A stretch of 39,271 nt of DNA. Origin: Candidatus Peribacteraceae bacterium (GTDB lineage Bacteria; Patescibacteriota; Gracilibacteria; Peribacterales; Peribacteraceae). This document shows positions 2,554-29,106 of this stretch, piece by piece. The stretch lies in NCBI GenBank assembly GCA_041658365.1, contig JBBAAJ010000002.1, forward strand, positions 1 to 39,271. Direction: 5' to 3'. Within the stretch, counting starts at the first letter, position 1. Every line of letters starts with the position of its first letter. Position numbers and translations under genes: made by a program. Below the pieces are notes generated by a model. That model ran no database searches and was not told the DNA's origin. It worked only from the letters and a program-made list of their open reading frames with translations.

Positions 2554-3177
2554 ATGCGCAAAACCGCTTTTCTCCTCGTTCTCTTCACCCTCCCCGTCAT
2601 GCTTGCCGCCTGCAGCTCCGTCCCCGTACCCGCGGCTCCTCCCGTAGATCAGGCAGCGACTCCCAGCTGGGTCTGGGACGGCACCATTCTCTCGGGAAAG
2701 CACACGGTCGTTCTCCAGACGACCAAGGGGGACATCACACTCGAGCTCAATGGGGATATCGCGCCGAAGACCGTCACGAATTTCATGGCGCTCGCGGCCT
2801 CCGGATACTTTAACGGTCTCACGTTCCACCGCGTGATCCCGGGATTCATGATTCAGGGCGGCGATCCGAACGGGAATGGCACCGGCGGCAGGAGTATCTT
2901 TGGGGAGATGTTCGAAGACGAAATCAAGCCGGACAGCGCCATGTACAAGGCCGGCTACAAGGAAGGCGTCGTCGCGATGGCCAATAGCGGGCCGAACACG
3001 AACGGCAGCCAGTTCTTCATCATGGATCGCGACTATCCGCTCCCGCCGAAATACACCATCTTCGGTTCCGTCGCAGAGGGGCAGGAAGTGGTGAATGCAA
3101 TCGCGAACGCGGAGCGTGATCCGACGAACGACATGCCGAAGCAGAAGGTGACCTTCGTGGTGAAGGTGATCAAATAA
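2554..3177 (+). CDS. cyclophilin-type peptidyl-prolyl cis-trans isomerase, lipoprotein
   Basis: Cyclophilin signature FHRVIPGFMIQGGDP...GTGG...NSGPNTNGSQFFI. The N-terminus MRKTAFLLVLFTLPVMLAAC has a lipobox. The longer ORF from 2305 overlaps murG and was rejected. Confidence 0.85.
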   Translation: MRKTAFLLVLFTLPVMLAACSSVPVPAAPPVDQAATPSWVWDGTILSGKHTVVLQTTKGDITLELNGDIAPKTVTNFMALAASGYFNGLTFHRVIPGFMIQGGDPNGNGTGGRSIFGEMFEDEIKPDSAMYKAGYKEGVVAMANSGPNTNGSQFFIMDRDYPLPPKYTIFGSVAEGQEVVNAIANAERDPTNDMPKQKVTFVVKVIK

Positions 3178-3265
3178 TTGCTAAATGGTTAAATTGTTAA
3201 ATTGTTCGCAAGCGAAGCGTCGAGTGTTGCCTGTCAGCAATTTAACAATTTAGCAATTTAACAAT
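3176..3265. repeat. AT-rich long hairpin, copy 1 of the CGCAAGCGAA-core family
   Basis: The left arm aattgctaaatggttaaattgttaaattgtt is an imperfect inverted repeat of the right arm agcaatttaacaatttagcaatttaacaat. The loop carries cgcaagcgaa (3207-3216). The element starts at the PPIase stop codon and a T7 run follows at 3274-3282. Confidence 0.8.
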
Positions 3266-5010: not shown

Positions 5011-5544
5011 TTGAAAATGCAAAAAATCTATCAAAAGTCAGCAATTCGAGGAAACCGCTTGCCTCACGATACTTCTGGTACACTGGGTACCATGAGTGAC
5101 GTTGAAGTAGATATTTCCACGGAGGGCGGCAGGGCCGTGATCGAGGGGAAGACGTCGGTTCCCTTCCGCACGTTCGTGAGCCTCATCCTCCAGAGGAAGG
5201 TCCAGACAATCTTCAAGAAGTGTCAGGATGATCCCGTGATCGTCGGGAGCGAGCTCTTAACTGCGCTCGCGAGCGCGCCGGACGATCGTCAGGAGGATCG
5301 GAGCAAGCTGGTGCTCGTGACGTTCGGCATGGGGGTGCTTGCCGGGATCTTTCTCACGGTGCTCACGTTCGTTCTTCTTGCAATGTTCGGCGTGCGGCCG
5401 CAGGACAAAGACCTCCTCATCGTTCTGGGGATTTTCCTCGTCGTTGCTGTTGTCATGTTCGTGCTTCTCCACGTGCAGCGAACGCCGGGAAAGCAACAGC
5501 TCTACGACACGATGGAGAAGATCAAAGATCTGATAATGCGATAG
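5011..5544 (+). CDS. hypothetical membrane protein (two C-terminal TM helices)
   Basis: Hydrophobic segments LVLVTFGMGVLAGIFLTVLTFVLLAMF and LLIVLGIFLVVAVVMFVLL. The start is uncertain (TTG 5011, ATG 5017 or ATG 5092). No family recognised. Confidence 0.5.
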   Translation: MKMQKIYQKSAIRGNRLPHDTSGTLGTMSDVEVDISTEGGRAVIEGKTSVPFRTFVSLILQRKVQTIFKKCQDDPVIVGSELLTALASAPDDRQEDRSKLVLVTFGMGVLAGIFLTVLTFVLLAMFGVRPQDKDLLIVLGIFLVVAVVMFVLLHVQRTPGKQQLYDTMEKIKDLIMR

Positions 5545-5549
5545 GTTTT

Positions 5550-5645
5550 CAATTGTTAAATGGTTAAATTGTTAAATTGTTACGCAAGCGAAACGCACGC
5601 TGTTGCATGCAAGCAATTTAACAATTTAACAATTTAGCAATTTAT
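5550..5645. repeat. AT-rich long hairpin, copy 2 of the CGCAAGCGAA-core family
   Basis: The left arm is caattgttaaatggttaaattgttaaattgtta and the right arm is agcaatttaacaatttaacaatttagcaattta. The loop carries cgcaagcgaa (5583-5592) and ttgcatgcaagc. It closely resembles the 3176-3265 element and ends 3 nt before the murB ATG. Confidence 0.8.
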
Positions 5646-5647
5646 TC

Positions 5648-6517
5648 ATGCAATTACTTGAGAACATTTCTTTGGCACCCAAGACCACGATGCGCATCGG
5701 CGGCACGGCGCGCTATTTCGCCGAGCTTCGGACGAGAGAGGACGTGGAGAACACATGGCGTTTCGCGCGGGAGCATCACCTTCCGCTCATTCCGCTCGGT
5801 GCAGGATCGAACACGATTTTCGCCGATGGCACGGTGGAAGCGGTTGTCATTCAGGTCAAAGCCGATTCAGTGAAGCGCGAAGCAAACAGCGTGACGGTTC
5901 AGGCGGGGAAACACCTGGCTTTGCTCGTGAGCGAGTGCGCGAAATCAGGGCTTGACCTCTCGGCGCTCGCCGGCATTCCGGGGACGGTCGGCGGCGCAGT
6001 TTTCGGCAACGCGGGACAGGGGCCCGAAGGTGTTTGGACAGGGTCTTTTCTGAGTCAGGTCGAAGTGTTCGTGGATGGTGCCTGGAAAGTGTTCTCACGT
6101 GAGGAATGCGGCTTCGGTTACCGCGATAGTGTGTTCAAGAGCATGCGCGGTGCGGTTATCTGGGAAGCAGTTTTTTCGCTTCCGGTAAAAACTCCCGGGG
6201 AAATAGAGGCCGAAATACAAAAACTTTTGCAGCACCGCAAAGACGCGCAGTTCTTCGGCCGCACAGCGGGCTCGTGCTTCAAAGGACTCCCGGACGGCGC
6301 CTCTGCCTGGAAGCTCATTGATGCCGCCAATCTTCGCGGTTTCCAGGTCGGTGGCGTGCAGATCAGCGAAAAACACGCGAATTTCCTGGTGAATTCAGAG
6401 GGAAAGGGAACGTTCGCCGATGCGGTTGCGATCGTCGAGAAGGTGAAACGGTCGGTTCCTGCATTGTCCGGTGTTGAGATGCGATTTATCGAGTCAGATG
6501 GATCGGTAAGGTATTGA
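5648..6517 (+). CDS. murB: UDP-N-acetylenolpyruvoylglucosamine reductase
   Basis: N-terminal LAPKTTMRIGGTARYF, an FAD-binding GAGSN motif, and C-terminal GGVQISEKHANFLVN, as in MurB. Confidence 0.9.
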   Translation: MQLLENISLAPKTTMRIGGTARYFAELRTREDVENTWRFAREHHLPLIPLGAGSNTIFADGTVEAVVIQVKADSVKREANSVTVQAGKHLALLVSECAKSGLDLSALAGIPGTVGGAVFGNAGQGPEGVWTGSFLSQVEVFVDGAWKVFSREECGFGYRDSVFKSMRGAVIWEAVFSLPVKTPGEIEAEIQKLLQHRKDAQFFGRTAGSCFKGLPDGASAWKLIDAANLRGFQVGGVQISEKHANFLVNSEGKGTFADAVAIVEKVKRSVPALSGVEMRFIESDGSVRY

Positions 6518-6572: not shown

Positions 6573-7421
6573 TCAGAACGGCAAATCCTCCGGCTTGATC
6601 TCGGATTCGTATTTGACAGAGGGAATCGCTGCGGCGGCCACGAGGGCCGGCTCCGGCTCGGCGGGAGAGACGGCGGCGGAAGCGTCCGTCCGGACGGATG
6701 CCAGGATCTCCGTATTGCGTGTACCGAGGAGGGAGACATGGTCGGCGATGATCTCCGTCGTCGCGCGTTTCTGGCCGGCCTGCGTTTCCCATGTGCGCGT
6801 CTGCACGCGGCCGGAAACATAGATGCGCTGCCCCTTCCGGACGGCATGCTGCACGGCCTTGGCGAGGTCTCCCCAGATGACGACGGAGTGGAATTCCGTC
6901 CGTTCCTTGGATTCCTGCGATGCCTTGTCCCGCCAACGCTCGTTCGTGGCGACACTCAGCGTGAGAACGCTTACGCCACTCGTCGTCGTGCGGATCTCCG
7001 GGTCGCGGGTGACGTTTCCGATGACCTGTGCGCGGTTGAGACATTGGAGGAGAACGCCGGCATCCGACGGCGGTTCAGTCTGCCCGTCCTTGGGATCGAG
7101 GAGAATCATGTCAAGCGCGACCACCTTGGTCTTCGAGCGCTTCTCGCCAGACTGAGTGTCCTCCCAGCTGTCTGTCTGAAGGCGGCCGGAAACAAAGATC
7201 TGTGCGCAGGGCTTCACGTACTGGCCTGCTATGTCGGCCATACCGCCCCAGACGGTGACCGTATGGAAACTTCTGCCGGCGAGGGACTCGCCACGCGCGT
7301 TCTGGAAGGAGTACGGCACGACGAGATTCAAGTCTACGACGCTTGTGCCGGCGGGCGTCTGGCGGAGGGTAAGTGGTTGTGTTTGGTAGCCGATGAGTTC
7401 GACCCTGTTGAGTGAGAACAT
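6573..7421 (-). CDS. ssb: single-stranded DNA-binding protein with two tandem OB folds
   Basis: It starts MFSLNRVELIGYQ (ATG 7421). A second OB begins at LNRAQVIGNVTRDPEIR. Both halves share the ...FH.V..WG......V.KG..I.VSGR.QT..WE... pattern. The C-terminal tail is EDLPF. The ORF extension to 7625 was rejected. Confidence 0.85.
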   Translation of the reverse strand: MFSLNRVELIGYQTQPLTLRQTPAGTSVVDLNLVVPYSFQNARGESLAGRSFHTVTVWGGMADIAGQYVKPCAQIFVSGRLQTDSWEDTQSGEKRSKTKVVALDMILLDPKDGQTEPPSDAGVLLQCLNRAQVIGNVTRDPEIRTTTSGVSVLTLSVATNERWRDKASQESKERTEFHSVVIWGDLAKAVQHAVRKGQRIYVSGRVQTRTWETQAGQKRATTEIIADHVSLLGTRNTEILASVRTDASAAVSPAEPEPALVAAAAIPSVKYESEIKPEDLPF

Positions 7422-7536
7422 CTCTGCGGGGGGAATGGAAGTAAAGGAGGTTGCCGTGGACGAACGTACACCCTGCCAGATTGAGTGGCAAACAAAAGGA
7501 ATTGAAGAAAAAGAATTTTGTTTCTTGGTAGTAAGA

Positions 7537-7693
7537 GAACCTCCGATTAATCGGCAGTATTCCACATCAGCAGCGGCCGTCCCGGCCGCGGCGAATGAAA
7601 AATTGCTGCGTTGTCCATCACGCAAACACCGCGGCTCGGAAAGCCGCTGCTGTTATGTTGTTGTTCGCGAACGATAGCATTTATCGGAGGTTC
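7537..7693 (+). repeat. ~157-nt structured element, copy 1 (candidate ncRNA or MITE-like element)
   Basis: A near-identical core recurs at 25991-26157. The 15-bp terminal stem pairs 7537-7551 with 7679-7693. A perfect 10-bp inner stem pairs cagcagcggc (7568-7577) with gccgctgctg (7643-7652). Strand assignment is tentative. Confidence 0.6.
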
Positions 7694-7759
7694 CTAAGTT
7701 CTGATTCTCCGATCATAGGCAATAGACAATAGAGTCCAGTACACTCGCGAGCGGAACCC

Positions 7760-10735
7760 ATGCGACAGCGCATCATGCTCTCCCTTCTGGCCTCTCTCCT
7801 CCTCACGACCGCCTCGGAGGCGGGGGCAGCTCCGTTCATCCCGAAAATGAACGAGCCGAAATCCTACAAGGACGCGCTCTTCGGCGCGGGAGAAACGCGG
7901 CAGAACATCGAGTCGGTGGACTGCGGCGGATTCGACAAGGATTCGAATGCCACGGTGAACGGTACGACGATGACGGGTGGCAACGTGCCGATTCCCGATG
8001 TGAGCGCGGATCTCCCTGGGCGGGACAACGGTAATCCGCTCGGCGATCCTAAGACCGGTCTCGGTACCCGCGGGGATTTCCAGTATCCCGGCTCTGCGTG
8101 GGGCTACCTCTCCGCGTGCAACATGTACACGGACAAAATGCGCGATCCTGATCTCGAGAAAATGGAGAAAGACATCAAGCTCAAGATCGCGGATGAGGAT
8201 GACCCCAACAGTGAGATTTCTGCGGAAGTCGTTGATGGTCATGGGGATATCGATATCAACCCCAAGCGATGGTGCATACGGTTCGATAAAGCGACGCCCT
8301 CCTGGTGCAGGGCACTCTACAGATGGTTCCAGATTCTTTCCGCGAGCGCCTCAGCGAACGACCTCCGCCCGGCTATCAATCCCGACTGCCCGAATCCTCC
8401 GTCGAAGAAATACTGTTTCGATGATCCGTACACGAAGGAATGCAACGGCGAAGAATGCCGCACGGTATCGATGCCCGATTTCGGCAGCAAGGTTTCGGAG
8501 TGCCACAGGGAAACGGATGCGGATGGGAACGAATTCGTCGTCACTGATGTCGGCGGCTACGAATACGGGACCAAGAGTTCCTTCTACCGGCACTATGCAG
8601 GGGGTTTCAGAGAACCGGAGATCATCGTGACGGAGTACAAGAACAAGGATGGACCGCACAATATAAAAAAATGGAAAGTCCGTGCCGAGTGTTACGAGTA
8701 CTACATGGAGAGCGATCCGAAATACCGGGTGACCGGGCGGGCAGATGAACAGTGCGAGTTCGTCATCTCGACTCCCGGGGAACAGAATCCCGACACACCC
8801 GAGTGGGTCGAGGGGGACGGACACAAGCAGAAGAAGGGGTACGTGCCGGAAGCCGGATTGGTGCAGGATCCTCCGCGTGACCCCAGGACAGCCCCCGAGC
8901 CCTGGGTGGCGGATACGGAGACGAACCTCTCGATGATTGACATGAAGCGCCTCAAGGAACTCCAGAAGGATTTCGAGGATCCGACGGACATCACCGGGGT
9001 GATCGGCGCGCTCCTCCCTGCGAAGCAGCGCGCCACGAAGACGACGCCGGACTACGCGCGCACGGATATGTTCGATGACACGGCGGAGAGGAAGATGAGC
9101 AACTTCTGGGAAGATCAGCAGAAGGAACTCCTCAAGATGGTGACGGAGCCCGCGACGAGGCTTGTGCTGCCCGCGCGCGCGTTCGTGGGGTTGCAGAAGA
9201 ATGATCCGTTCTTCCAGTATGTGCGCAGCATCGTCTCCCGTTCCAACGGCATCGTGGAAATCACGCTCCGCGCGGGGCAGGAGGACGTCGGGAACGCACT
9301 CCTTTCCCTCGAGCGCAATCTCATCATGCCGATCCGCGAAGTGCGCATTCCGCTCATCGTGCCGCTTGTATCCGGGGAGGAGCTCAACACGCGCATCTTC
9401 GAATGGAAACAGTGGAAAATGCGCGAGGACAAAGATGCCGAGAAGCCCCCGGGACGCCCGTCGTACGCTGGCATGGCCAATCCACTCATCATCAAGCTCG
9501 AGCAATACCGTGATGCACTGAAGACGGAGCGGCGCATGCGCGGCGCACTGGCGAATTACCTCGTGAAGCTCTTCGACAAACAGCGGCAAATCCGCGAGTA
9601 CATCGCCAATTGGTACACATCGGATACGGCTGCTCTGGAGATGGCGAAACTACAGTCGGAAGACCGCCGACGGCTCAAGTGGATCTGGCGCCGGTTGCAG
9701 CGCGCGATGCTGCAGACAGACGAGTGTCAGCTCCAGTGGTGCAGTAACCAGCGGTACTCCGCGCCGGTCTACTCATTGCTCGACCTGTGGTGGGGGGACC
9801 GTCAGCCCGGCGAAATCCGGAATGTCGGCTACCTGCCGCGCGACCTCAAAGACCTCCGCTACGAGCAGCCGAAGGACAGGGTTTTCGATTTCTCGAAGAT
9901 GGGGTTCGCTACAGGCGGGCTCTTAGTCCCCGTCCTCTGGCCCGTGCAGGTGAAACTGAAGCTGCCGCTTCCTCCGACCGTGGGATTGCCGCCGAATCCG
10001 GACGACTTCCCGGCTCTCGCCTCGTTCCCGAACGAAACCGTCTTTGATTCGTTCACTGTTCCCGCGGTCACTCTCCCACCGCAGACGCCTCTGCCGCCGT
10101 CCCCGGCCGCGGATTTGAGTGAGGCAATGCAGATCCTCCGCGAGTACCGCAAAATCGTGGATGGGACAGATTTCCCTGAGCAGGAGCAGGAGGAAACAGT
10201 CGCGATGGCCGGCACGCCCCCGCCGGATGACGCTGGCCCATGGAAGGATCGCGGCAGTATGCGCGGTTCGTACTGCCGCTTCCCCCCGAGCATCATGATC
10301 CCGCCGGACCCCGAAGATAAGCACGGGAATCCCGACAAAATCATACATGTGGAGAACGACCTGAAGGAACGCTTGGCGCGCCTCTTCTCGCGCTGGATGC
10401 CGGAACGAATGGAGGACGTAGGAGGACGCGCAGTGCGGCTCAATGACGAATTCGCCAAGCCGGATGACATGGCTTGCCGTGAGGATGTCGTCTGCAATTC
10501 TCTCGCTCCGGAACAGACGACGACCGCGACCTGGCAGTGGTTCATGAAGGCGACGACCGCCGAGTTCACAACACTCGCCGATGCAATGCGCACGCTCACT
10601 TGCCCGTTCTGCGAGCCGCCGGATGAAACGCAGAATCCCTACCTCGACACGCCCGTAGAGCTCATCAAGCGCACGTTCCAGAGATTGCCGCTCCCCATCG
10701 AGATTCCCCTGCTCCCCAACCCCCCTCCCCCGTGA
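7760..10735 (+). CDS. hypothetical exported protein P1 (991 aa), Cys- and Pro-rich
   Basis: Signal peptide MRQRIMLSLLASLLLTTASEAGA. It has many Cys residues and Pro-rich tracts (LPLPPTVGLPPNPDDFP, C-terminal LLPNPPPP). No motif recognised. It is the first gene of a coupled operon. Confidence 0.75.
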   Translation: MRQRIMLSLLASLLLTTASEAGAAPFIPKMNEPKSYKDALFGAGETRQNIESVDCGGFDKDSNATVNGTTMTGGNVPIPDVSADLPGRDNGNPLGDPKTGLGTRGDFQYPGSAWGYLSACNMYTDKMRDPDLEKMEKDIKLKIADEDDPNSEISAEVVDGHGDIDINPKRWCIRFDKATPSWCRALYRWFQILSASASANDLRPAINPDCPNPPSKKYCFDDPYTKECNGEECRTVSMPDFGSKVSECHRETDADGNEFVVTDVGGYEYGTKSSFYRHYAGGFREPEIIVTEYKNKDGPHNIKKWKVRAECYEYYMESDPKYRVTGRADEQCEFVISTPGEQNPDTPEWVEGDGHKQKKGYVPEAGLVQDPPRDPRTAPEPWVADTETNLSMIDMKRLKELQKDFEDPTDITGVIGALLPAKQRATKTTPDYARTDMFDDTAERKMSNFWEDQQKELLKMVTEPATRLVLPARAFVGLQKNDPFFQYVRSIVSRSNGIVEITLRAGQEDVGNALLSLERNLIMPIREVRIPLIVPLVSGEELNTRIFEWKQWKMREDKDAEKPPGRPSYAGMANPLIIKLEQYRDALKTERRMRGALANYLVKLFDKQRQIREYIANWYTSDTAALEMAKLQSEDRRRLKWIWRRLQRAMLQTDECQLQWCSNQRYSAPVYSLLDLWWGDRQPGEIRNVGYLPRDLKDLRYEQPKDRVFDFSKMGFATGGLLVPVLWPVQVKLKLPLPPTVGLPPNPDDFPALASFPNETVFDSFTVPAVTLPPQTPLPPSPAADLSEAMQILREYRKIVDGTDFPEQEQEETVAMAGTPPPDDAGPWKDRGSMRGSYCRFPPSIMIPPDPEDKHGNPDKIIHVENDLKERLARLFSRWMPERMEDVGGRAVRLNDEFAKPDDMACREDVVCNSLAPEQTTTATWQWFMKATTAEFTTLADAMRTLTCPFCEPPDETQNPYLDTPVELIKRTFQRLPLPIEIPLLPNPPPP

Positions 10736-20449: not shown

Positions 20450-20515
20450 GCAGGTAGATACCTGCTCCCGTTTTTCTTGGTTTTCTTTCATCCAAGGGAG
20501 CGGGTGTCTACCCGC
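20450..20515. promoter_or_regulatory. two related 16-bp palindromes upstream of nrdR (candidate operator sites)
   Basis: gcaggta-ga-tacctgc (20450-20465) and gcgggtg-tc-tacccgc (20500-20515). A third copy, gcgggta-tc-tacccgc, lies at 29091-29106 with the shared flanks gag...gt. Confidence 0.3.
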
Positions 20516-25055: not shown

Positions 25056-25994
25056 ATGGATGAGCCAAACCCGCCATCGGAAAACGCGCCTCCGGCACCG
25101 AAAACCGGCTTGAGCCGTGAGGAGGACATCCAACGTGCCGCAGAAATGGGACGCAAGCGCATGGAGCATGAAGCGGCCATCCGCACGCGAATAAAAACCC
25201 GCAAAGAGGAGGAGGCGCGAAAGGGACAGGAAATTGTGCGCTACGGTGAGGAACACAGAGAAGAATTGCGTGGGAAGAAGAAGGAGTACCGGCGTGGGAT
25301 CAAGGAACGTCAGAAACAGGCGGAGGAAGAGAAGAAGCGCCGCGAGAAAGAACAACAACTGGAGAAAGAGAAGGCGGAGAAGCACGCGGAGGAGAAGAAG
25401 AAGAAAGAAGGCTATATGCAGGAGATTCGCGAGGTGGCCACGCTCAAGCAGGCCATCGAAAACCGCAAGTACAAGCTGAAACTGGAGTACGAAGGCGCCT
25501 GCAAAAAAGCACGTTTCGACCGACAGCAGGTCGTGGGACAAGCTGAGTTCAAGCGGCATTCGCTGGAGCAGGAGCTGGAGCGCGAAATACGAGCGAAGAA
25601 CGCCGTTGTAGAAGCGGAAACACATCAGAAGATGTACCAGCTCGAGAGCTGGCGCCGAATGAAGCTCGCAGCGATCGACTCGGAGGCCCGTTCGCAGCAG
25701 GCAGCGCTCAGAGGCAGGAACGTGTACGAGATCGAGAAACAGCGCATGGACATCGCGGCGACATCAAGCGTGAAGCGCAAGCGCGCGGAAACCGAATTCA
25801 AAGAACGGAAACAGGAAATAGAGAACGAGGGACGCATGAAAAGCTCGAAGGTGGCCGAAGAACTGAGTGACCGCCGGACGAAGAGCGAGATGGAATACAA
25901 GCAGAAAGTGCTCGAGGCGGACCGGAAACTTGCACGGACGCTCGAGGAGCTTGCGTACAGCTACGACGCGAAACTACACGGCAAAAAGGGCTAG
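25056..25994 (+). CDS. hypothetical highly charged K/E/R-rich coiled-coil protein
   Basis: A long open frame with runs such as KQAEEEKKRREKEQQLEKEKAEKHAEEKKKKE. No TM segment or signal peptide. ATG 25056 is preferred over GTG 25038, which lies inside the inverted repeat. Confidence 0.5.
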   Translation: MDEPNPPSENAPPAPKTGLSREEDIQRAAEMGRKRMEHEAAIRTRIKTRKEEEARKGQEIVRYGEEHREELRGKKKEYRRGIKERQKQAEEEKKRREKEQQLEKEKAEKHAEEKKKKEGYMQEIREVATLKQAIENRKYKLKLEYEGACKKARFDRQQVVGQAEFKRHSLEQELEREIRAKNAVVEAETHQKMYQLESWRRMKLAAIDSEARSQQAALRGRNVYEIEKQRMDIAATSSVKRKRAETEFKERKQEIENEGRMKSSKVAEELSDRRTKSEMEYKQKVLEADRKLARTLEELAYSYDAKLHGKKG

Positions 25995-26157
25995 GGAACC
26001 ACTGATTAATCGGCAATATTCCACATCAGCAGCCGCCGTCCCGGCCGCGGCGAATGAAGAATTGCCGCGTTGTCCATCACGCAAACACCGCGGCTTGGAA
26101 AGCCGCTGCTGTTATGTTGTTTATCGCAAGTAATGGCATTAATCAGAGCTTCCCTAG
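25991..26157 (+). repeat. ~165-nt structured element, copy 2
   Basis: Its core is nearly identical to 7552-7660. The terminal stem pairs gggaaccactgattaat (25994-26010) with attaatcagagcttccc (26138-26154). Its first bases include the TAG stop (25992-25994) of the upstream gene. It ends 43 nt from the 3' end of tRNA-Leu. Confidence 0.6.
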
Positions 26158-26199
26158 TTTAAAAACTGAACCTTCTTACAATCTCGGATCCACTTCTGC

Positions 26200-26287
26200 T
26201 GGTGCCGGGGGAGAGATTTGAACTCTCAAGGAGGTAAACCTCCACTGGCTCCTAAGGCCAGCGCGTCTGCCATTCCGCCACCCCGGC
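26200..26287 (-). tRNA. tRNA-Leu, anticodon UAG, long variable arm, CCA encoded
   Basis: The minus strand reads GCCGGGGTGGCGGAATGGCAGACGCGCTGGCCTTAGGAGCCAGTGGAGGTTTACCTCCTTGAGAGTTCAAATCTCTCCCCCGGCACCA. The acceptor stem is 7 bp. The anticodon stem CTGGC/GCCAG closes the loop CTTAGGA. The T arm is GAGAG-TTCAAAT-CTCTC. Confidence 0.93.
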
Positions 26288-29090: not shown

Positions 29091-29106
29091 GCGGGTATCT
29101 ACCCGC
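29091..29106. promoter_or_regulatory. perfect palindrome GCGGGTA-TC-TACCCGC (third copy of the motif seen at 20450-20515)
   Basis: It sits in the divergent intergenic region between the 28986 operon and the SLH-protein gene. Flanks gag...gt are shared with the 20500 copy. Confidence 0.3.

Follow-up and report, generated by a model that had tools for sequence, protein, structure and literature searches.

We asked what kind of element occurs twice in a 39,271-nt stretch of Candidatus Peribacteraceae DNA (contig JBBAAJ010000002.1, the whole of which stretch is referred to here as the window). The preliminary description of these sequences read them as a pair of paralogous, structured non-coding RNA genes with a rod-like, 6S-like architecture and named a MITE as the main alternative. 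It is the alternative that was borne out, by dispersed copies, terminal repeats, target duplications and insertion polymorphism: the two elements are very probably copies of a 159-bp MITE of an uncultivated Peribacteria (CPR/Patescibacteria) lineage, for which we infer mobilization in trans by an IS5-group transposase. Among six MITE features tested, five were found (a small, non-coding body; terminal repeats; a duplication of fixed length; dispersed copies; and insertion polymorphism), and the sixth, an autonomous partner, was not found in the ~200 kb of fetched loci.

A repeat search of the window returned a direct repeat pair at 7534-7700 and 25993-26159 (167 nt, 88% identity), and the two ~160-nt copies with a near-identical core described earlier are real, each measuring 159 bp, with 88% identity between them. 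In a pairwise alignment, the core of ~117 nt contains 5 differences between the window copies and the ends diverge more. Copy 1 occupies 7536-7694 on the + strand, where the family profile matches 7537-7694 (E = 1.7e-53) and the boundaries were set via the flanks; copy 2 occupies 25995-26153, also on the + strand (family profile, E = 5.1e-57). The coordinates first assigned to copy 2, 25991-26157, took in both of its target-site duplications. BLAST and nhmmer profile searches found no further copies within the window.

All copies carry imperfect terminal inverted repeats of 17 bp, which in the family take the form GGAACCTCTGATTAAT(C) / (C)ATTAATCAGAGSTTCC. The left terminal repeat of copy 1, AGAACCTCCGATTAATC (7536-7552, + strand; fuzzy match to the family's terminal repeat), pairs with the right one, CATTTATCGGAGGTTCC (7678-7694, + strand; fuzzy match and flanks), and fuzzy matching likewise placed GGAACCACTGATTAATC at 25995-26011 and CATTAATCAGAGCTTCC at 26137-26153 (both + strand) at the ends of copy 2. 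Immediately outside these repeats, the same 4-mer stands on both sides of each copy: TAAG at 7532-7535 and 7695-7698 for copy 1, and CTAG at 25991-25994 and 26154-26157 for copy 2. The interior of the element is palindromic and GC-rich. Complete copies are all 159 bp long, with the exception of a 186-bp copy in locus L005 (229-420), whose 3' local hairpin has gained 27 nt of GC-rich sequence, GCCCGCCCGGATGACCCGGTCGGACGG, precisely in its loop.

To assess coding capacity, the element consensus was translated in its five long open frames and the concatenated products were used for a protein search, which yielded 1077 word candidates and no homologue at E <= 0.001. The idea that an open frame shared by the copies encodes a small protein was ruled out, as there were no homologues and several frames are open through high G+C. 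One such frame starts opposite the ssb 5' leader, where a perfect Shine-Dalgarno-like AAGGAGG is followed by GTG (7444-7458, + strand); it runs for 73 codons through copy 1, has no homologue that we found, and owes its counterpart in copy 2 solely to the near-identity of the core. The AAGGAGG/GTG arrangement probably arose by chance from the conserved CCTCC of the ssb leader.

The window is a stretch of ordinary chromosomal DNA with ftsW, murG, cyclophilin, gltX, murB, ssb, dnaE, sua5, nrdR and aspS genes, and further carries genes for a PLD-family protein, tRNA-Leu, an SLH protein, pyrF and comM; the same DNA is found on the ENA contig ERZ27247322, which overlaps it, and on the Logan contig SRR8449812. 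A spacer of 338 bp separates the divergent ssb (6573-7421, - strand) and a 991-aa ORF (7760-10735, + strand), and copy 1 is located there. Copy 2 is bordered on one side by the stop of a 312-aa ORF (25056-25994, + strand), whose stop codon, TAG at 25992-25994, lies inside the left CTAG duplication, and on the other by the 3' end of tRNA-Leu (26200-26287, - strand). An exact look-up of the 312-aa protein retrieved a Logan contig (L017) with the same gene, which ends 37 nt into the element; exact-protein look-ups with a 318-aa start variant and with the window SSB gave no match. We also considered the two direct copies as the attL and attR of an 18.5-kb island beside tRNA-Leu and rejected this reading, because the interval contains core genes (dnaE, nrdR, aspS), the tRNA lies clear of the repeats and the element is present at many other sites.

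Copies elsewhere were found by scanning JGI metagenome contigs with one 22-nt core pattern, which gave 14 loci. Thirteen of these contain true copies at 12 distinct sites (L007 and L014 are one locus in two metagenomes), holding the whole element or as much of it as fits before the contig end; the other, L012, was a chance match. Save for the L007/L014 pair, the flanks of the 13 copies are unrelated to one another and to the window. BLAST and nhmmer profile searches of all fetched DNA added a copy at L013 3614-3772 and a half copy at L005 1356-1425, for a total of at least 15 dispersed insertion sites. The half copy is a 70-nt relic comprising only the 5' half of a divergent-subfamily copy, ~1 kb from the L005 229-420 copy. 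Copies are 84-98% identical to window copy 2, in a sample biased by the exact 22-nt core pattern through which most were found. Furthermore, eight contigs (7 of the 13 JGI contigs and L017) break off within the element, as assemblies do at multicopy repeats. Beyond these metagenome contigs, the 22-mer GTTGTCCATCACGCAAACACCG had only a chance match among genome contigs (L001, in a metallophosphoesterase-like ORF of an unrelated Patescibacteria MAG), and plasmid, phage and viral-contig collections, the last scanned with two patterns, contained no match to the element.

These insertions revealed the length and sequence of the duplicated target. Identical 4-mers flank seven of the eight complete copies: CTAG in three (window copy 2, L005 and L013), TTAA in two (L004 and L011), TTAG in one (L006, copy at 2224-2382) and TAAG in one (window copy 1). 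The eighth, at L007/L014, is offset by one base, with CTAA to its left and TAAC to its right. A YTAR 4-mer is also present on the single recovered flank of every one of the seven contig-truncated copies (L003, L008, L009, L010, L013 1-99, L015 and L016), and the flank of the degenerate L005 half copy (1356-1425) is CGTA, not YTAR. The element duplicates a 4-bp target with the consensus YTAR, which replaces the TA target-site duplications proposed at the outset.

An IS630/Tc1-mariner-type MITE duplicating TA only would be in keeping with the TA found in every flank, and for IS711, a member of the IS5 family, duplication of the TA within a YTAR target has been reported (PMC2266754). However, the whole 4-mer is directly repeated on both sides of nearly all complete copies, and under a TA-only duplication the base on the inner side of the TA would be part of the element and that on the outer side part of the target, which TTAG/TTAG and TAAG/TAAG do not fit. 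Because these two pairs are direct and non-palindromic, they represent neither an extension of the inverted repeats nor a duplication of TA alone, and we consider the TA-only reading highly unlikely. A 4-bp YTAR duplication in place of TA thus shifts the likely transposase family from IS630/mariner to IS5-like. REP/BIME and IS200/IS605-type elements insert without duplicating the target, and in place of terminal inverted repeats they have subterminal hairpins. A palindromic element of this type, moved by a tyrosine (Y1/RAYT) transposase, would share the palindromic, GC-rich, intergenic and multicopy character of the element, but the variable 4-bp direct duplications and 17-bp terminal repeats seen here reduce its probability to almost nothing.

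Filled and empty versions of the same site were recovered at L004 and L006, orthologous contigs from two metagenomes that are 91-99% identical over ~5 kb. The filled site in L004 reads ...GGGGAATA-TTAA-element-TTAA-TACTC..., and the empty site in L006 reads ...GGGGAATA-TTAA-TAGTC..., with a single TTAA. The position of copy 1 was compared in the same manner with the syntenic ssb-P1 spacer in each of four related lineages (L019/L020, L021/L022, L023 and L024), whose SSB proteins are 77-82% identical. All four spacers keep the upstream blocks CTAYYAAGAAACAAA, TTCAATTCC and GGGTGTACGWTCGTYCACG, and the element is absent from all four (4/4); in the window it directly precedes the first block, and so stands between the motifs conserved upstream of either divergent gene. 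The absence of the element from these spacers indicates that copy 1 is a lineage-specific insertion and not a conserved ssb leader or regulator.

The ssb locus itself has two further features. The SSB encoded at 6573-7421 (- strand) is a 282-aa protein with two SSB/OB-fold domains in a single chain, an architecture that is best known from Deinococcus-Thermus and that is common to hundreds of Peribacteria/Peregrinibacteria homologues of 280-290 aa. All homologues with a named organism come from Candidatus Peribacteria, Peribacteraceae or Peregrinibacteria, the sole exception being one Kiritimatiellales MAG, which places the host among the CPR bacteria. A near-palindrome located some 35-50 nt before the ssb start, TGTACG-NN-CGTNCA (7454-7473; GGGTGTACGTTCGTCCACGG on the - strand), is kept in the window and in 4/4 related Peribacteria lineages and is perfect in L021/L022 as GTGTACGATCGTACAC. 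It resembles LexA-type operators of the form GTAC-N4-GTAC; if it functions as one, ssb would be SOS-regulated in this lineage.

The genic context of the insertions was scored with mechanical ORFs of at least 110 aa. No copy lies inside a long ORF, and in 6 of the 15 insertions (window copy 2, L003, L006, L008, L009 and L013 1-99) the stop codon of the adjoining ORF is the TAR of the duplication. Among the 340 YTAR sites in the same DNA, 18 (5%) serve as such stop codons, a figure that includes the 6 MITE-associated ones, giving an enrichment of P ~7e-5, or 2.5e-3 with sites inside ORFs excluded. Orientation at gene ends is mixed, with the 5' end of the element beside the stop in four cases and the 3' end in two. 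Because YTAR contains TAA or TAG and the 4-bp duplication restores the stop, insertions at gene ends would be harmless, and the simplest reading of the stop-codon pattern is target choice combined with selection against insertions inside genes. The landing pattern illustrates that insertions can be neutral when the choice of target is combined with a duplication that regenerates the stop.

We next turn to the fold, on which the RNA gene reading was built. The claim that the element has a conserved multi-helix fold held up: the helices listed for it (a terminal stem, the CAGCAGCGGC/GCCGCTGCTG stem, a CCGCGG helix and a TGCG...CGCA hairpin) are all found in the minimum-free-energy fold of copy 1, and both copies are far more stable than dinucleotide-preserving shuffles on both strands, with z from -4.0 to -8.1. 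Folding energies are -73.6 kcal/mol (z = -5.1) for the + strand and -79.1 kcal/mol (z = -8.1) for the - strand of copy 1, and -62.7 kcal/mol (z = -4.0) and -75.5 kcal/mol (z = -6.1) for the + and - strands of copy 2. The compensatory change reported in the terminal stem is likewise present, as C-G in copy 1 and T-A elsewhere (column 9 with 178). A rod or multi-hairpin fold is, though, an automatic consequence of inverted-repeat architecture and so does not constitute evidence of an RNA gene.

Covariation, measured on 12 copies, gave the fold negligible support. Standard pairs occupy 96.3% of cells (90.7% in the 16 pairs of the terminal helix), and 35 of 49 pairs never vary. With copies 84-98% identical, the power of the test is low. 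Only 3 of the 49 pairs have changed on both sides, two of them in the terminal stem. The covariation score was reached by 3 of 500 shuffles, and by the tool's own calibration unstructured relatives often score alike; the RNAalifold covariation term, +0.19 kcal/mol, amounts to no support. Pairing is kept in two local hairpins, where GGCCG-TCC-CGGCC has become GGCCC-TTC-GGGCC and GCGGCTT-GGA-AAGCCGC has become GCGCCCT-GAA-AGGGCGC, double changes seen in L004, L013 and the L005 half copy. These kept hairpins are at most a hint of some constraint on DNA or RNA secondary structure, and they do not turn the element into an RNA gene.

Rfam, the check proposed for an RNA family, gave no match to the element at gathering score and nothing meaningful at E <= 10. 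At gathering thresholds only the tRNA was found in the window, and at E <= 10 the two copies drew no 6S model, only fragments of microRNA and isrG families that scored 13-21 bits where the thresholds are 70-100 bits. Promoter- or terminator-like signals around both copies did not exceed shuffle expectation. Two paralogous genes under selection for an RNA fold would be consistent with the great stability on both strands, greater on the - strand, with a core better conserved than the ends between the window copies, and with compensatory changes in three pairs and a covariation score that few shuffles reach. Such genes are nevertheless very improbable given the number of insertion sites with target duplications, the L004/L006 filled/empty polymorphism, the relatives' orthologous spacers without the element, the lack of any Rfam match including 6S, the invariance of most pairs together with the RNAalifold term, the mixed orientation to the adjoining gene (4 versus 2) and the lack of a promoter-like site.

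Stability and gene-end position could also reflect a secondary role. ERIC, REP and Correia elements have been reported as 3'-end stabilisers or terminators, and some or all copies of this MITE, as long RNA hairpins just after stop codons, could have been recruited to stabilise mRNA 3' ends or to terminate transcription. This would fit the enrichment of insertions at stop codons, the very stable RNA fold, and the local hairpins kept through double substitutions, with the L005 27-nt insertion confined to a hairpin loop; co-option, if true, would explain the kept hairpins, the few compensatory changes and the gene-end enrichment in a streamlined CPR genome. The enrichment, however, has a simpler explanation in target choice combined with purifying selection against intragenic insertions, the element is not followed by a T-run terminator signature, and both orientations occur at gene ends, which makes co-option improbable.

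How would a non-coding MITE of this kind move? An autonomous IS5-group (IS5 family) element would supply a DDE transposase in trans, which would bind the terminal repeats and cut the element out; the excised element would then be pasted into YTAR sites through a 4-bp staggered cut. The resulting 4-bp duplication would regenerate the stop where the site is a stop codon, and harmless gene-end insertions would accumulate. At gene ends the hairpin would be transcribed within the mRNA 3' end, where it may incidentally affect termination or stability. The YTAR 4-bp duplication and the GGAA termini make an IS5-group transposase acting in trans the best candidate, an assignment that draws solely on the target with its duplication and on five terminal bases. 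In a mutation-accumulation study, IS5 duplications formed the motif (C/T)TA(A/G) (PMC5009759). In IS5A of E. coli K-12 the first bases are GGAAGG and the last CCTTCC; the two ends of the element read GGAAC and GGAAG, so that the termini share only 5 bases with IS5A, a weak likeness.

A transposase-bearing parent, which the preliminary description had named, together with many dispersed copies with TA duplications, as what would make the element a MITE, was not found, in contrast to the copies themselves. No pair of family terminal repeats lies 1-2 kb apart in the ~200 kb of fetched DNA, and a phmmer search with InsH against six-frame translations of all loci, which are a small part of any genome, returned no IS5-like transposase at E <= 10. 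The transposase family is therefore open to a second reading, in which the MITE is moved by a non-IS5-group transposase that makes 4-bp duplications, for example one of the IS701 family, nearly all of whose elements generate duplications of exactly 4 bp (PMC2266710). We regard this as rather unlikely, since GGAACCTCTGATT is at odds with the end consensus published for IS701 (---YACT-Y--YR; PMC2266710), and the GGAA start and YTAR target match IS5.

Other repeats populate the same DNA. A second palindromic intergenic repeat family occurs in the window at 3168-3265 and 5535-5649 and in L004 at 1934-2050, and consists of three tandem 8-mers (AATTGTTA/AATGGTTA), a conserved centre (TTCGCAAGCGAA.CG...TGTTGC...AGC) and then an inverted 8-mer array. 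In the window its two copies lie just after stop codons, at 3177 and 5544, and ahead of gltX and murB; the L004 copy has the same architecture and centre with other 8-mers (CATGGCTG/CATGGTTA), and the orthologous stretch of L006 (4403-4440) is a different, shorter sequence. A short palindrome, (GA)GCGGGTATCTACCCGC(GG), lies upstream of nrdR and of the SLH-protein gene (20500-20515 and 29091-29106) and recurs in six MITE-bearing loci (L005 1325, L006 65, L007 8676, L008 4371, L010 3219, and L013 7551 and 7724); the more distant Peribacteria loci L019-L024 lack it. This palindrome may be either a small repeat or a protein-binding site specific to the lineage, and its distribution supports an origin of the MITE loci in the window's clade.

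These results remove a false lead, since the fold comes as a by-product of a transposon's palindromic structure rather than from a new 6S-like RNA, and they document a MITE family that is actively polymorphic in Peribacteria. The genomes of CPR bacteria are small and commonly called streamlined. A literature search combining MITEs with CPR terms found no report. In practical terms, the element breaks metagenome assemblies of this lineage, as the eight contigs ending in it attest, and it could serve as a strain-level marker.

The element can be compared with several known systems. With 6S RNA and other rod-like non-coding RNAs it shares a long, mostly double-stranded predicted structure of ~160 nt; unlike 6S RNA, it is mobile with target duplications, has no Rfam match and no conserved genomic location, and lacks a central-bubble architecture under covariation. 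It resembles IS5 and IS5-family-derived MITEs in its 4-bp YTAR duplication (PMC5009759) and in the bias of insertions to non-coding DNA, and resembles IS5 in its termini (GGAA(G/C) versus GGAAGG). It differs from IS5 in being 159 bp long without a transposase gene, in ends that diverge beyond the first 5 bases, and in its host, a CPR bacterium and not a proteobacterium, with no cognate IS found in the ~200 kb of fetched loci. The YTAR target consensus is shared also by IS711 of Brucella (IS5 family, IS427 group), an 842-bp autonomous element reported to duplicate only the central TA (PMC2266754), whereas the Peribacteria element duplicates 4 bp.

The ERIC/YPAL elements of enterobacteria and the Correia/NEMIS elements of Neisseria are multicopy palindromic sequences of 100-170 bp with terminal inverted repeats, which occupy intergenic positions near gene ends and form long RNA hairpins when co-transcribed. 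The Peribacteria element has no sequence similarity to them (no match in Rfam, plasmid or phage searches) and duplicates 4 bp where they duplicate TA, but it is like them in size, terminal repeats, gene-end intergenic sites and hairpin folding. It is a new MITE family of a known type: ordinary selfish DNA, not a new structured RNA gene.
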